This document shows positions 2,645-13,073 of a DNA stretch of 24,028 nt, piece by piece. The notes beneath the pieces were generated by a model, which saw only the letters and a list, made by a program, of their open reading frames with translations, had not been told where the DNA came from and ran no database searches. The translations under genes and the position numbers were made by a program. Each line of letters begins with the position of its first letter. The first letter of the stretch is position 1. Source of the DNA: a virus (Duplodnaviria; Caudoviricetes); IMG/VR virus record IMGVR_UViG_3300047288_000016, positions 1-24,028 of that record; one strand, 5' to 3'.

Positions 2645-3076
2645 TCACATCTCCAAATAGGGTACTGAGGGTTTCAATAGTGCTGCCACTTCGTCCTGCT
2701 TACTACGAGTCCATTCAGCTTTAAACCCTGTCCAGCCACGGCTACAACACTCTCGTAGAGCCGCCTCTAGCGTCATCCCTGCCTTCATAGCTTCGTTGGC
2801 TATACCTTCGATTGCCCTAGCGGTAATCGGCGCTTTCTTGGCGTTTCTGAGGGCTTTAAAGTCTGCCCACGTTTGCTCAGACACACCGTCCGGCAATCCC
2901 AGACCATTCCTGATTTGAGTACGTTCCTGCTTAACTTTGGTTTGCCTGTTTTCCGTCTTTTCGTCTAGCAGCAGGCAAATCATGCTAGACAGGCTACGGT
3001 TGTCAGCCTGGGCTAGTTCTGTCAGATGTTGCCTCATAGTTTCTGACATTCTGATAGTGACGTATACGTTTTTCAT
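2645..3076 (-). CDS. Ribbon-helix-helix (Arc-like) domain fused to a phage replication-initiator C-terminal-like domain
   Basis: The N-terminus VYVTIRMSETMRQHLTELAQADNRSLSSMICLLL is Arc/CopG-like. The C-terminus LPDGVSEQTWADFKALRNAKKAPIT...ECCSRGWTGFKAEW resembles phage replisome-organiser C-termini. Confidence 0.6.
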   Translation of the reverse strand: MKNVYVTIRMSETMRQHLTELAQADNRSLSSMICLLLDEKTENRQTKVKQERTQIRNGLGLPDGVSEQTWADFKALRNAKKAPITARAIEGIANEAMKAGMTLEAALRECCSRGWTGFKAEWTRSKQDEVAALLKPSVPYLEM

Positions 3077-3270
3077 GCCTCATCCCAAGGTTCAAGTTGT
3101 TCGGTAATGTCGGTAATGCTGAATGCGTCCTCAATGTCTAGCGTCTCTACTACATCCCATGCCGACTTTGGCAGGTCAAGCGCTGCATCCCATGCGTACT
3201 CATCATCCTTGTGGGTAACGATGACCTCTACCAGTTGTCTGCGGTATGCTCGGATTCTGTACGTTTGCAT
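3073..3270 (-). CDS. Hypothetical acidic protein (65 aa)
   Basis: Start reassigned to ATG 3270 because the RBS CAAGGAGAAACAAA directly precedes it. Confidence 0.7.
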   Translation of the reverse strand: MQTYRIRAYRRQLVEVIVTHKDDEYAWDAALDLPKSAWDVVETLDIEDAFSITDITEQLEPWDEA

Positions 3271-3335
3271 TTTGTTTCTCCTTGGTTTGTATTCACTACA
3301 ACCACAGTACACCACTTTAACTCACGTTGTGTATA

Positions 3336-3351
3336 TAGGGACAAACCCTAA
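3336..3351. promoter_or_regulatory. Palindromic TAGG-N7-CCTA operator, copy 2
   Basis: TAGGGACAAACCCTAA, upstream of a leftward promoter candidate (TACACA-18-TACTGT). Confidence 0.55.
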
Positions 3352-3392: not shown

Positions 3393-3420
3393 TTGCAATC
3401 CTTTATGGATTAGGTATACT
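3393..3420 (+). promoter_or_regulatory. Sigma70-like rightward promoter
   Basis: TTGCAA-16 bp-TATACT, directly before the structured RNA region. Confidence 0.6.
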
Positions 3421-3425
3421 TGTAA

Positions 3426-3732
3426 TGTTGCTAAGGCGAACAGCGACAAAGACCGTTTAGGTCTGTGCCTCCCATTGGGCGACAATCCGGTGGTGTTTCG
3501 CCAGGTGCAGACTTAAACGGTTTTTTACCGATTAGCAACCGCCAGAATCGTCGGGTGACAATACGGCAGGGTCTGGGGATAGTCGCTACTGTGGGGTTAG
3601 GTGTGAGACAGCGACAAGGGTGGCGAAGTTAGCGCCCAACACCGAACGGCTGACGGGTTCCGTGGCTCCGAAGAGCAGGATGAAGGACTTAGCTACCGCT
3701 AGGATAGGCTAGGTTCGTCCACCAAAGAGCAG
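3426..3732 (+). ncRNA. Candidate structured non-coding RNA (C4/CI-like three-way junction plus a downstream multi-stem domain)
   Basis: A 23-bp stem (3448-3470/3503-3525) encloses two small hairpins and ends in a U-run. At least five further hairpins follow, up to ~3716. No credible ORF is present. Confidence 0.55.
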
Positions 3733-3767: not shown

Positions 3768-3883
3768 AATGTAATTATTGCTATATAGTGAGAATATGCA
3801 GTAGCTGGTGCTAGGTGTTGGCTACCTAGTGTGTTTTCCTTGTGTGTTAGTCCTACAAAATCCCGCCTTACGGAAGCCAGCTA

Positions 3884-3911
3884 TTGCATATTTCTAAAAA
3901 ACAGGTACAAT
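3884..3911 (+). promoter_or_regulatory. Sigma70-like rightward promoter
   Basis: TTGCAT-16 bp-TACAAT. Confidence 0.6.
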
Positions 3912-3916
3912 TTCTG

Positions 3917-4000
3917 CGGGGTAGTGTTTTCTCCTCCTTGTACATTACCCGATCAGGTAGCTAGACCCAGTCCCCCGCCCGAGTGCGGGGGATTCCTTTT
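3917..4000 (+). ncRNA. Candidate ~80-nt sRNA/leader with an anti-SD loop
   Basis: Stem GGGTAGTGT/ACATTACCC (3919-3950) with loop TTTCTCCTCCTTGT, lying between a promoter and a terminator-like hairpin. Confidence 0.5.
3969..4000 (+). terminator. Rho-independent terminator-like hairpin
   Basis: AGTCCCCCGC-CCGAGT-GCGGGGGATT followed by CCTTTT. Confidence 0.6.
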
Positions 4001-4009
4001 GGAGCTAAG

Positions 4010-4660
4010 GTGATACCGAGAAAACTGCACATTGTGTGGGTCGGAGACGAAAGTAAACGCCCGGACAATTGCATCAACACATGGCGCAACAAGAATCCAG
4101 GCTGGGAGATTAAGGTCTGGGGGAACAAAGAGCTTGCGGAAACTCCGTGGCGCAATGCCAAGCACATGATGGACTTTGCCAAGCGTGAGCTTTGCGGTGT
4201 TGCTGACCTTATGCGCTATGAAATCCTGTATGCGGAAGGTGGCTTGGCTGTCGATGCTGATAGCGTGTGTCTAAAACCGTTACCGTCTTGGCTAATGGAT
4301 GCAGAGGAATGGTGCTGTTGGGAAAATGAGATTAAGCGTCCTGGACTATTGGCAGTTGGCTACCTCGCAGCGAAGGCGGGCAGTCCGTTTATCGGACAGA
4401 TCATCGAGGATATCTACGCAGACGACCTTACGGGCAGACCCGCATGGCAAGCAACAGGCCCCGTCCGGCTTACCGAGATATTCGAAAAATTCGAATACCC
4501 TAACTTAACCATCTACCCGTCCCACTATTTCATCCCAGAACACTTTACCGGGCAGCGTTATACCGGATGCGGACATGTGTTTGCCAAACAGTTCTGGGGC
4601 AGCACCCACAAAATCTACGATAGTTTGTACATGCAGGAGTGCATAGATGAACGAGAATAA
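4010..4660 (+). CDS. Glycosyltransferase, DXD sugar-binding (GT32/OCH1-like)
   Basis: IPRKLHIVWVG, ADLMRYEILYAEGGLAVDADS and TGPVRLT; GTG 4010 preceded by GGAG. Confidence 0.85.
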   Translation: MIPRKLHIVWVGDESKRPDNCINTWRNKNPGWEIKVWGNKELAETPWRNAKHMMDFAKRELCGVADLMRYEILYAEGGLAVDADSVCLKPLPSWLMDAEEWCCWENEIKRPGLLAVGYLAAKAGSPFIGQIIEDIYADDLTGRPAWQATGPVRLTEIFEKFEYPNLTIYPSHYFIPEHFTGQRYTGCGHVFAKQFWGSTHKIYDSLYMQECIDERE

Positions 4661-5556: not shown

Positions 5557-5729
5557 TGCCTTGGCTACCTATCCTCTTTGTCTGCATGATGGGTAGCTGT
5601 GATTTTATGGTGGGCGATGTAGAGTGGTCTGCCAGTGAGTGTGAAAAGGTAATGATTGCTGCCGCTAAAGAGCTAGAAGTTGCTGGCGCTACGGTGGCAG
5701 GTGTGTGTATACAGGTTAAGATAACTTAG
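5556..5729 (+). CDS. Small Cys-containing hypothetical protein (57 aa)
   Basis: MPWLPILFVCMMGSC...C...GVCIQVKIT; TAATG coupling. Confidence 0.6.
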   Translation: MPWLPILFVCMMGSCDFMVGDVEWSASECEKVMIAAAKELEVAGATVAGVCIQVKIT

Positions 5730-5742
5730 GTATTAACCCTAA
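5727..5742. promoter_or_regulatory. Palindromic TAGG-N7-CCTA operator, copy 3
   Basis: TAGGTATTAACCCTAA, upstream of the small terminase gene. Confidence 0.5.
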
Positions 5743-6097: not shown

Positions 6098-7338
6098 TCA
6101 TCGACTACAGTCCTCGTGATCCGCAGATGGCGATACACAACGCTGTAGACAATCACCGTTTCGTGGTTGTGGTGGCTCATCGTCGTTTTGGGAAAACTGT
6201 AGCGGCGATCAACGAGGCGATCAGGGCGGCAATAGACTGCCAGCTAGAGCGTCCCCGTATCGGCTACATAGCACCTACCTACAGCCAAGCTAAGAGGGTA
6301 GCGTGGGATTACCTTACGCATTACACCCGTCCTCTGGGTGCGGTGGCTAACATTGCTGAACTCAGGGTGGACTTCTGGGATAGGCGTATCCAGCTATACG
6401 GGTCAGATAACCCTGATAGCTTGCGGGGACAGTATTTTGACCTCGTGATACTGGACGAGATTGCAGACCAGAACCCTAAGATATGGAACGAGATCATCCG
6501 TCCTGCGCTGGCAGATAGGAAGGGTAAGGCGATATTTATCGGTACACCCAAGGGGCAGAACCACTTTAAGGAACTGCGAGATAGGGCTGAGGTAGAGCCA
6601 GATTGGGCGCTACTAGAGTTCAGGGCTAGTGAGACAGGGATTGTCGCCAAGGAAGAACTGGACGCTGCCAGACGGGAGATGGGCGAGGATAAGTACGCTC
6701 AGGAGTTCGAGTGTAGCTTCCATGCCGCTATCGAGGGCAGCTACTACGGCAAGATACTGAACGATATGCTGCCTGAGAGGTTTACGGCAATCAACAGGGA
6801 TGACCTATGCCGGACATATACCGCATGGGACTTGGGCGTAGGTGATTCTACGGCTATCTGGGTGGCTCAGGTAACAGGCAAAGAGATTCGCCTGATGGAC
6901 TATATCGAAAACCACGGTGTAGGGCTAGATTGGTACGTCAGAGAGCTAACAGAGCGCTCCTGGCACAAGGCAGAGCATATTGTCCCGCACGACATACAGG
7001 TAAGAGAACTAGGCACAGGTAGGTCTAGGCTTGAGTTGCTACAGGAGGCGGGGTTCTCCTGCACCGTAGCGCCGAGGCTGTCTGTAGACGATGGGATACA
7101 GGCTGTGCGTAGGATGCTGCCAGACTGCTGGTTCAACCTGCCCGCCACCAAGCAGGGGCTAGAGTGCTTGCGTAACTACCGCAGGGAGTTCGACGAGAAG
7201 CGTAGTGTATTCTGGGACAAACCCTTGCATGATTGGGCATCCCACGGGTCAGACGCTTTCCGCTACCTAGCTGTGGGAATGAATGACACCACATCGTGGG
7301 GTAAACCTTTACAACCTAACACAAGGTGGATTGTGTAA
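6082..7338 (+). CDS. terL: Terminase large subunit
   Basis: Walker A HRRFGKT, APTYSQAKR, LRGQYFDLVILDE (Walker B), IGTPKG, nuclease AWDLG and HDWASHGSDAFRY. Confidence 0.96.
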   Translation: MVKEIVIDYSPRDPQMAIHNAVDNHRFVVVVAHRRFGKTVAAINEAIRAAIDCQLERPRIGYIAPTYSQAKRVAWDYLTHYTRPLGAVANIAELRVDFWDRRIQLYGSDNPDSLRGQYFDLVILDEIADQNPKIWNEIIRPALADRKGKAIFIGTPKGQNHFKELRDRAEVEPDWALLEFRASETGIVAKEELDAARREMGEDKYAQEFECSFHAAIEGSYYGKILNDMLPERFTAINRDDLCRTYTAWDLGVGDSTAIWVAQVTGKEIRLMDYIENHGVGLDWYVRELTERSWHKAEHIVPHDIQVRELGTGRSRLELLQEAGFSCTVAPRLSVDDGIQAVRRMLPDCWFNLPATKQGLECLRNYRREFDEKRSVFWDKPLHDWASHGSDAFRYLAVGMNDTTSWGKPLQPNTRWIV

Positions 7339-7478
7339 TGTGGGCAAGACCTAAAGGCAACCAGCCTACTAGAGAAGAATTTGATGCGCTGCTGCGTAGG
7401 ATCGAGGAGCTAGAGAAGAAACTAGCCGAGCAGCCTAAACGTGGCAGACCTAAGAAAGAGGATGAGCAGAATGGATGA
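7338..7478 (+). CDS. 46-aa coiled-coil protein with an AT-hook-like KRGRPKK motif
   Basis: MWARPKGNQPTREEFDALLRRIEELEKKLAEQPKRGRPKKEDEQNG*; coupled to the terL stop and overlapping the portal start. Confidence 0.65.
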   Translation: MWARPKGNQPTREEFDALLRRIEELEKKLAEQPKRGRPKKEDEQNG

Positions 7479-11230: not shown

Positions 11231-12182
11231 TAAAGTTAGTCTAATAAACTAACGCCAGTCCCCTTCATATTTAGAGGCTGGCAAATGGGAAAGCTAAACA
11301 TTAGTAAGGAGCAGTTAGAAACCTTAAGTAAGACCAACACTTGTGAAGAAATTGGCAGGATGTATGGCTGTAGTGCAGAGTTAGTTAGACGAGCGATGCA
11401 CAAAAATGGTGTTAAACTGAGCAGGCGAAAGTTCGACCCCAGTAAACACGATTTAGAACAGCTATATCAAACCATGTCAATGCGGCAAATTGCCGATCAT
11501 TATGGAGTTGGTGAAACGGTAGTGTGGGCTAGGCTCAAAGAACATGGGATTGTTCTGCAAGAATTTGGTAATCACAGGCTGAAACCAGGAAGGATATTTA
11601 GCTTGGAACACCGAAAGAATTTGAGCAAAGCACACACGGGAAGATGGGAAGGTGATAAAAACCCGAATTGGAAAGGCGGGGTACATCATCAAAACTTGAA
11701 AGCTAGGGCAACAGGCGAATACAAGCAGTGGCGTATCGCAGCACTAGCAGCCAAGGGAAATAGATGTGAATGTTGTGGAGTTGAGCAAGACACAGTTTGT
11801 AACTGTTGTGGCGTAAAAATAAGACTCCATGTTCATCACATCAAACCGTTTTCTAAATACCCTGAATTAAGGTACGAACCGCTAAATGCTGAAGTTTTGT
11901 GTCCCAGATGCCATGCAGCTAGACATGATTGAATAATCGGGTGAATTGCTGGAACGCCCTTAGAGCCTTGAGTACCAAAGCGTAATAATCTCAAGGATTG
12001 GGTAATCAGCAGCCAAGCCGCAAATGTAAGGTGAAAACCCCAGGGTTGCGGAAGGTTCAACGACTAGGCAGTGACGAAAGAATAATCTGCCCACGAGCGC
12101 CCGACACGAAAGTGATGATATAGTCTGAGCTACCGTGAAAGCGGTAGAAGCAAGGATAAAGAGCCTTGCGATAACATAACTG
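11231..12182 (+). mobile_element. Group I self-splicing intron (952 nt, IA-like) carrying a homing endonuclease
   Basis: P1 with U.G wobble; P AATTGCTGGAA 11944; Q AATCAGCAGC 12004; R GTTCAACGACTA 12055; S ATGATATAGTC 12115; P3 TCGGGTG/CGCCCGA; P7 GACTA/TAGTC; P8 and P9 GAAA hairpins; terminal G 12182. Removing it restores the capsid reading frame. Confidence 0.93.
11285..11932 (+). CDS. Intron-encoded HNH homing endonuclease (2x HTH, NUMOD3-like, zinc-finger HNH)
   Basis: HTH-like CEEIGRMYGCSAELVRRAM and MRQIADHYGVGETVVWARL; FSLEHRKNLSKAHTG and GDKNPNWKGG; LHVHHIKP...N...LCPRCH. Confidence 0.9.
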   Translation: MGKLNISKEQLETLSKTNTCEEIGRMYGCSAELVRRAMHKNGVKLSRRKFDPSKHDLEQLYQTMSMRQIADHYGVGETVVWARLKEHGIVLQEFGNHRLKPGRIFSLEHRKNLSKAHTGRWEGDKNPNWKGGVHHQNLKARATGEYKQWRIAALAAKGNRCECCGVEQDTVCNCCGVKIRLHVHHIKPFSKYPELRYEPLNAEVLCPRCHAARHD

Positions 12183-13073
12183 GTTATTTACGACATCTCC
12201 CCCACCGACACTCCTTTGCTGAATACCTTGGCTCGTGGTAAGGCTACGGCTGTGTTCCACGAGTGGCAGACCGACAACCTCGCTGCTGCTACCACGGGTA
12301 ACGCTGCTGTTGAAGGCGCGGATGCTACCTCTGCTACGCTTGCTCCTACGACCCGTCTCGGGAACTATACGCAAATCGTGCAGAAAACGATTCAGGTCAG
12401 CGGAACGCTTGAGGCCGTTAATAAGGCTGGTCGCAAGTCTGAAAAGGCTTACCAGTTGGCTAAGGCTTCTAGCGAGTTGAAGCGCGACATCGAAACCATC
12501 CTGTTGAGCAACCAGGCTCGTTCGGCTGGTAGCGGCTCTACCGCTCGTAAGATGGCTTCCATGCTGTCTTGGCTCAAGACCAACACCAGCGAGGGTGTTT
12601 CGGGTGCTGATCCCACGACCATTGGCGAGTCGACCCGTTCGGACGGTACTGCCCGTACCTTTACCGAGCAGTTGCTCAAGGATGTGATTCGTGGCGTGTA
12701 CGAGTCGGGTGGTTCGCCCAAGATCCTGTTGGTCGGCCCCGCTGTCAAGCAGAAAGTCTCTACGTTTGCTGGCATCGCCGAGCAGCGTTACATGGCCCCT
12801 GCTGACGCTCCGACCACGATCATTGGCGCTGCTGATGTGTATCTCAGCGACTTTGGTTCGGTTTCTGTCGTGCCTGACCGCTTTATGCGCGCAACCGATG
12901 CTTTCGTGCTTGATCCTGAGTACGCAGCAGTCGCTTATCTGCGTCCGTTCGCTACCAACGAACTGGCTAAGACGGGTGACAGCGAGAAGACACAGATTCT
13001 CGCCGAGTTGACGCTCGAGATGAGAAATGAAAGTGCGCATGGACTCGTGACCGACATCAACGCTGCTCTCTGA
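12183..13073 (+). CDS. Major capsid protein, exon 2 (spliced product 314 aa)
   Basis: Begins VIYDISPTDTPLLNTLARGKATAVFHEWQTD; RLGNYTQI, KELKRD-like SSELKRDIE and LAKTGDSEK motifs of SU10/DUF5309-like capsids; follows the scaffold gene. Confidence 0.92.
   Translation, partial: VIYDISPTDTPLLNTLARGKATAVFHEWQTDNLAAATTGNAAVEGADATSATLAPTTRLGNYTQIVQKTIQVSGTLEAVNKAGRKSEKAYQLAKASSELKRDIETILLSNQARSAGSGSTARKMASMLSWLKTNTSEGVSGADPTTIGESTRSDGTARTFTEQLLKDVIRGVYESGGSPKILLVGPAVKQKVSTFAGIAEQRYMAPADAPTTIIGAADVYLSDFGSVSVVPDRFMRATDAFVLDPEYAAVAYLRPFATNELAKTGDSEKTQILAELTLEMRNESAHGLVTDINAAL

Follow-up and report, generated by a model that had tools for sequence, protein, structure and literature searches.

The segment at 3884–4000 of the window (the whole stretch of DNA analysed here, 24,028 nucleotides long: a 24-kb virus record that is 67% complete and occurs in river and freshwater metagenomes) is very probably transcribed as the leader of a late promoter. 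It is a real and conserved unit, undescribed as far as searched, and sequence comparison places it in an apparently undescribed family of late-promoter RNAs, unannotated in Rfam, that is frequent among uncultured phages of freshwater. The reading towards which we lean goes one step further: a late promoter followed by a short terminated leader of the pR′-tR′ type, whose leader RNA would also act in trans as a repressor of the phage's own early translation. This targeting of its own early genes is argued from comparative evidence.

The unit opens the rightward, late block and follows a Betaproteobacteria-1 RNA at a distance of 225 nt. The leftward block (left of 3270, − strand) carries O-like replication, Erf-like and exonuclease genes, and the rightward block (from 4010, + strand) encodes glycosyltransferase, terminase, portal, scaffold and capsid proteins. 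The first late-region gene (4001–4660 with its RBS at 4001–4004, + strand, start codon GTG at 4010) encodes a DXD glycosyltransferase (Pfam Gly_transf_sug, E 5.2e-10), and such a gene is also found downstream of the unit in L134, L135, L139, L140, and L362. Two short genes lead the early operons. The first, a hydrophobic gene of 28 aa (1666–1580, − strand; 1580–1682 with its RBS at 1668–1682), is the leader of the Erf/exonuclease operon and the best predicted target of the unit; its product falls into no PHROG family, and the Erf-like and exonuclease genes come next. The second, a gene of 65 aa (3270–3073, − strand; 3073–3285 with its RBS), is the leader of the replication operon and the second predicted target. 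A host search returned three distant MAG matches only, with no close prophage.

Several other features of the window were recorded. A Rfam scan (E up to 1) found only two known RNAs, neither of them on the unit. The Betaproteobacteria-1 RNA lies at 3540–3658 (+ strand, 95.8 bits), is preceded by a promoter-like site at 3393–3420, is also present in L024, a record without the leader unit, and is covered in a relative by an RNA-library contig (X20) that spans window positions 3547–3663. The other match is a group I intron at 11889–12147 (+ strand, 79 bits), accompanied by an HNH endonuclease ORF at 11285–11932; this region (11285–12147) lies just 5′ of the major head protein frame at 12216 and probably interrupts it. 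A palindrome, TAGG-N7-CCTA, occurs upstream of both early operon leaders (1720–1734 and 3336–3350) and a third time at 5727–5741, before a small terminase-like gene; relatives have similar sites, and the palindrome is a candidate operator. In G013 (12127–12775, oriented) and G017 (7195–7389), small leftward genes with early-type RBSs are embedded in the late region and immediately precede the small terminase-like gene.

The unit begins with a predicted sigma-70-type promoter (3884–3911, + strand), composed of a −35 element TTGCAT (3884–3889) that agrees with the consensus at 3 of 6 positions, 16 nt of spacing, and a −10 element TACAAT (3906–3911), so placed that transcription would start near 3917–3918. 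It is followed by a 5′ stem-loop (3919–3950), in which arms at 3919–3927 and 3942–3950 form 9 pairs, one of them G-U, around a CU-rich loop of 14 nt (3928–3941). A predicted intrinsic terminator (3969–4000) closes it, with a GC hairpin at 3969–3994 and a tail, TTCCTTTT (3993–4000), whose U-run is interrupted; the GGAG at 4001–4004 and the GTG at 4010 come directly after. The unit has the layout of a pR′-tR′ leader, a sigma-70-type promoter and an intrinsic terminator directly 5′ of the late genes. A previous inspection of the letters (hereafter the sequence-only reading) had described a promoter, a 9-bp hairpin and a terminator-like hairpin, and each of these elements is where it placed them. 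Both promoter and terminator fall below threshold in a simple consensus scan, so that their support comes from conservation in relatives. Folding against shuffled sequences backs the earlier proposal of a discrete non-coding unit on the + strand: z is −2.46 for the whole unit (2/200 shuffles), −2.58 for the first hairpin (2/200) and −3.33 for the terminator (0/200), whereas the − strand folds no better than its shuffles (z −0.62, 58/200). A leader peptide starting at a GTG in the arm was considered and rejected, as its length varies from 6 to 62 aa and it is not conserved.

Coverage by RNA was judged from the contigs of four RNA-labelled and three DNA runs, in which gaps carry no weight. The sole RNA-labelled contig across the unit comes from run X18, which is flagged as probably DNA; this contig, from a relative, has seven substitutions in 3848–3894, none in 3895–3949 and three small changes downstream. 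Two further structures lie around the unit. The motif TTCC-TTTT-GGAG (3993–4004, + strand), also present in B2 units, could fold into a small hairpin over the first late RBS in a read-through RNA. Upstream, a hairpin at 3808–3832 (+ strand) is terminator-like in the consensus scan, and a degenerate second anti-SD-like stretch, within 3808–3845, looks like the arm and loop of the unit.

Relatives' loci were gathered through neighbouring genes and sequence patterns, most pattern-search matches being due to chance, and yielded 30 distinct strings behind a promoter-like site. Two of these (L277 and L302) were discarded by eye as not unit-like, two correspond to type E, and 26 share the 5′ arm. The latter are distinct homologous units with an AGTG arm, located at the late promoter of freshwater phages. 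The string G.GG..AGTG, just behind the predicted start, is invariant in 21 of the 21 aligned units, the 5′ arm having served as the search key. A promoter of the form TTG..TA.AAT stands at an equal distance from the 5′ arm in the homologues, and that of L372, L377, and L378 is near-identical to the window promoter. Every homologue listed is closed by a GC hairpin and a T-run of varied sequence, which was a criterion of selection. L346, L362, L372, L377, and L378 were added as members by eye or through a tract-plus-terminator search. The unit is single-copy in each record matched, and no unit precedes the first late gene in three relatives (G017, G019, and G020). A Rfam scan of 16 loci gave no match on the unit.

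The homologous units fall into types that differ in where the CU-rich tract is placed. Types A (that of the window), B1, and B2 carry it in the loop of the 5′ hairpin, and types C and C2 in the linker between the two hairpins; the C2 units have the same 5′ arm as the window and no CUCC in the loop. Display in a loop, which the sequence-only reading had taken as the defining feature, thus does not hold across the family, and the unit most probably represents a late promoter's terminated leader and not a free-standing sRNA gene. In the predicted folds, the tract remains open wherever it stands: in 25 of 26 units CUCCU is unpaired with a probability of 0.85 or more, and in the window the value is 0.93–0.99. 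The pair types of the 5′ stem alternate between A-U and G-C at two positions between type A and type B, and RNAalifold on 8 A and B hairpins finds a double change in just one of the eight pairs, so that formal covariation is thin. A profile (R1) built without base pairs detects A, B, and C units and misses types D and E, which are consequently treated as analogues by position and layout, their homology with A, B, and C not being established. Type F units (L343, L370, L375–L377, and L382) were left out, as they lie before a replication gene and show no clear covariation. As a side observation, these type F elements (L343, L370, L372, L375, L376, L377, and L382) consist of a promoter, a CUCC hairpin and a terminator beside the divergent early promoter, and L377 holds both a late-leader unit and a type F unit.

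The predicted seed of the window unit is an extended anti-Shine-Dalgarno tract at 3925–3942 (+ strand), comprising the loop (3928–3941) and stem-adjacent bases. The 11-nt identity between 3925–3935 and 1668–1678 that had been pointed out, and with it the complementarity to the RBS of the 28-aa leader gene, is exact, and so is the match to the RBS of the gene starting at 3270, which spans 8 nt at 3275. Three of the 11 matched bases (3925–3927) belong to the stem and lie outside the loop. Pairing with the RBS of the 1666 leader (1668–1682) reaches 15 pairs with a 3-nt bulge, at −17.1 kcal/mol. Match length alone proves little, since an unrelated exact 11-nt match links 3951–3961 to position 589, within the exonuclease gene. 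When all bases but the fixed CUCC cores were shuffled, 11 nt at an SD-bearing start were attained in 7 of 1000 trials. After opening costs, the duplex with the 1666 leader ranks first among 37 start regions (−10.2 kcal/mol) and that with the 3270 leader third (−8.5 kcal/mol); the region ranked second belongs to a frame of 28 codons that lies within another gene. The UGUUUUCU half of the 11-nt match also forms the 5′ arm in C2 units, in which it pairs in cis, so that some of the match may be inherited.

One check on this predicted pairing, which the sequence-only reading had itself proposed, is whether tract and RBS change together among relatives. Tracts and the phages' own leading early RBSs match over 11 nt in type A (AGGAGAAAACA), 9–11 nt in type C (ACCAAGGAGA and variants), 11 nt in type B2 (CTGAGGAGGGC), 9–10 nt in type D (AAGGAGAAG) and 9–10 nt in type E (ACACGGAG variants). 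In type B1 (CTGAGGAGGA), the matches of G004 span 10 and 9 nt, and those of G001 and G009 just 7 nt. These values were read from whole records, and the 19 tract-RBS pairs were picked after the matches had been seen. Relative to the unit, the partner RBSs can be on one DNA strand or the other, and at the RNA level they are antisense in every case. Within the C and C2 units listed by 5′ arm, TCTCCTTGGTTC is identical in 10 of 10, and stems and terminators vary. The C tract also matches the 3270 RBS of the window, over 11 nt.

An unsupervised test drew on 12 genomes from six clades, with all of their SD-bearing starts, and compared the true assignment of tracts to genomes with the 720 clade permutations. 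Pairing with the own genome reached 1/720 by exact match for the sum of the top three and 2/720 for the best match, figures that are ranks and not clean probabilities, since the clades are related and share RBS styles. By duplex energy over an 18-nt stretch the preference is less marked, with ranks of 43 and 20 among 720, and with the energy test restricted to the four homologous types it is 1/24. Raw duplex energies of the 50-nt bodies show no own-genome preference and no diagonal in the matrix. When flanks were shuffled 1000 times, the top-three sum was reached by 6 shuffles for type A, by 31, 46, and 22 for type C, 9 and 5 for type D, 32 for type E, 80 for type B2, and 93, 435, 609, and 1000 for type B1, the last three being G001, G005, and G009, which do no better than chance. 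The expected covariation was therefore recovered across lineages by exact match, less clearly by energy, and not in these three B1 genomes. As a predicted interaction, pairing in trans with the RBSs of the phage's own leading early genes, which had been proposed for both leftward operons, is supported by this covariation.

It could be objected that such an RNA would mask any strong RBS of the AGGAG type, mainly on host mRNAs as a means of host shut-off, the phage early genes being incidental. In every unit the core of the tract is indeed complementary to the SD consensus, and AGGAG or GGAGG is commoner in early than in late genes whether the unit is present or absent: 77/203 early versus 35/232 late genes in ten unit-bearing genomes, and 13/43 versus 4/54 in two genomes without the unit. 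Since the bias also holds in these two, it was rejected as support for regulation; it nevertheless suggests that a CUCCU seed would spare most late genes. For masking of this general kind the core alone would suffice, yet the conserved flanks pair outside the SD of the phages' own early mRNAs, and we consider this account distinctly unlikely.

Two outside tests were available for the match between tract and RBS. In the first, the linker of type E was noticed before any partner was known, and its complement was then searched for as an advance prediction. In each of two records the complement occurred at a single further place, which proved to be the RBS of the first gene running leftward, and related RBSs were found elsewhere in G013; this prediction held. 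The second, which used genes positionally equivalent to the 28-aa gene at 1666, gave a mixed result. A match of 9–10 nt was present in 10 of 10 C-type loci, namely those with a start found out of the 13 examined. The RBS of these loci reads ACCAAGG with a tract CCTTGGT, and that of the window TACAAGG with CCTTGTA, such that the two adjacent bases upstream of AAGG differ in RBS and tract alike; the window tract is placed in the loop and the C-type tract in the linker, yet both match the RBS of the 28-aa gene. In L362 and L377, the RBS of the 28-aa gene matches over about 6 nt only (by eye), the units of L371 and L373 reach 7 nt at most, and the divergent unit of GenBank MW202462.1 matches an internal early gene (9 nt by eye) and not the operon leaders.

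According to a rival account, the unit is a terminated late leader and nothing else, the CU-rich tract serving transcription (pausing, read-through or RNA stability) and the RBS match being a by-product of lineage sequence habits. In its favour, position and architecture fit a pR′-tR′ leader and AGTG is invariant near the start; relatives carry Q-like proteins, the matches of B1 are weak or at chance level, and the energy test is borderline. It leaves aside that the flanks beyond the SD core shift with the phages' own RBSs in several lineages, that the tract remains open though it moves between loop and linker, and that the type E prediction came true. A leader acting on transcription only is unlikely in our judgement, and a leader that would act on early RBSs as well is preferred.

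A terminator just before the first late RBS means that read-through is needed for the late genes, likely by means of a Q-like antiterminator. The type E phage has a Q-like gene (phrog_127, E 2.6e-5). In the B, C, and D phages, a protein family of about 120–145 aa is suggestive of a Q-like antiterminator. Its look-alike clusters in the atlas carry Phage_antitermQ on 42% and 27% of their members, and a structure model of the family (pLDDT 77.9, with 16 of 24 sequences aligned) matches the Q chain of 6jnx (6jnx_P) end to end (Z 7.7, rmsd 4.5 over 105 residues) and AlpA with Z 5.7 and rmsd 4.8 over 99 residues. Sigma-4 domains outscore Q on this model (Z up to 9.1), over its C-terminal part. A single-sequence model (pLDDT 38.7) was unusable. 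The search for Q yielded no Q family in Pfam and no sequence match in the PDB, and Foldseek gave none at E up to 0.001. In the window itself, a fragment put at 67% completeness, no Q-like gene is present. Within the AGTG arm, TAGTGT (3922–3927 in type A) or AAGTGT resembles a −10 element in the A and C types, the B types having TAGTGC, and this element could be a pause signal for the loading of Q.

A quite different possibility is that the tract is not an RNA seed at all. It might serve as the RBS of a gene on the minus strand or as an operator in the DNA, be the fossil of an inverted early hairpin-plus-RBS cassette, or block the GGAG at 4001 in cis. Early hairpin-plus-RBS cassettes, read backwards, do look like a tract followed by a terminator, and reversed cassettes of this kind may be the origin of the unit's layout. 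Beyond the tract, however, the likeness is at chance (4.4/20 and 4.3/15 bases over 19 pairs), and the palindrome that marks early promoters is absent at the unit. The sequence-only reading had allowed that the motif might simply serve a translated minus-strand ORF, but a start codon stands behind the antisense RBS in just 1 of 28 units, and the − strand, as noted above, does not fold better than its shuffles. It had also offered cis action on the GGAG at 4001 as an alternative. A GGAG lies downstream of the terminator in 15 of 28 units, but the cis duplex of the window has only 4 bp, and the homologues before the glycosyltransferase gene have GGTGA instead. This whole group of explanations is therefore extremely unlikely.

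Small RNAs with C-rich or CU-rich anti-SD seeds, such as RsaE/RoxS and the cuckoo RNAs, are known from bacteria, where they are host-encoded and have many targets. The unit resembles them in its open CUCC-type motif, predicted to pair with the SD, and differs in that its flanks follow a few leaders of its own phage and in having no Rfam match. Among phage RNAs, the closest in origin is StxS, a base-pairing sRNA that is a by-product of the terminated PR′-tR′ leader and blocks the RBS of stx1B (PMC7547250). RNase E releases it as a 74-nt fragment of a 258-nt leader; it associates with Hfq, and its targets are host rpoS and a gene of the late region (PMC7547250). The lambda 6S RNA has one early-operon partner in RIL-seq, its role being undetermined in that preprint (bioRxiv 10.1101/2024.10.31.621285). 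As in both of these, a short RNA is predicted here between a late promoter and a terminator ahead of the late genes, with likely read-through of the Q type; unlike in StxS, the whole leader would measure 70–90 nt, and pairing is predicted with the leading early genes of the phage. The comparison with StxS is one of descriptions and not of sequences, and the unit has no Rfam match.

In its targets, the unit is closer to the c4 RNA of P1/P7 (RF01695; PMC12197685), which pairs in trans around an RBS of the phage's own mRNA with lineage-specific complementarity, as is predicted here. For the unit, however, no antirepressor target was seen, one extended anti-SD tract makes up the whole seed, the location is a late promoter, and the c4 model gave no match in the window in the Rfam scan at E up to 1. 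P22 sar is likewise a short phage RNA acting at a phage RBS, a blocking that is predicted for the unit, but sar is cis-encoded opposite arc-ant and fully complementary to it (PMC7968456), whereas the unit lies 0.65–2.3 kb from its predicted targets and would pair over 8–15 nt. A cis-encoded antisense RNA of the sar/OOP type was rejected, as 27 of 28 units have no start codon behind the antisense RBS and the predicted targets lie elsewhere. By analogy, the unit would work like StxS in origin and like c4 in target logic, as a member of no Rfam family. A literature search found no paper on this RNA; five motif strings were absent from six supplementary files of PMC10690425, and files 1, 2, and 4 of that article, not covered, may list the unit.

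The complementarity itself is also compatible with a role against other phages, in which the main job of the RNA would be to silence the first genes of a related phage that enters an infected or carrier cell, as in c4-like immunity, and not to time the programme of the resident. RBS styles are shared within lineages, so that the tract fits relatives too, and by extension from lambda pR′ (PMC7547250), a relative entering the cell would already meet a leader that is made constitutively. The c4 RNA offers a precedent (PMC12197685), and no integrase or cI-type repressor was named when 69 of the 72 early ORFs of four relatives were scanned against Pfam, an incomplete coverage. Sequence alone cannot tell such exclusion apart from self-regulation, and no sign of a carrier state was seen; as the main role of the unit, exclusion of kin appears very unlikely.

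Under the preferred reading, a constitutive late promoter would make a leader of about 83 nt (70–90 nt in the family), closed by the 5′ stem and the terminator. The open anti-SD seed between them would pair with the RBSs of the genes that lead the early operons and so damp their translation. We infer that the leader would build up before Q acts and would afterwards be absorbed into the late mRNA, once a Q-like antiterminator carries the polymerase through the terminator into the late genes. Whether such units form a widespread class of late-leader RNAs, repressing the first early genes of their own phage and of close kin with seed and RBS co-evolving by lineage, is a wider proposition that we regard as possible and hold tentatively. 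The natural compensatory variants of tract and RBS would provide ready-made pairs for allele swaps. If the proposal is true, the late promoter would act back on the translation of early genes, and phages that have no recognised protein repressor might thereby gain an exclusion specific to their kin. StxS is the worked exception among the Q-type late leaders, which are usually regarded as waste; here, such leaders would have been turned against the phage's own early programme.
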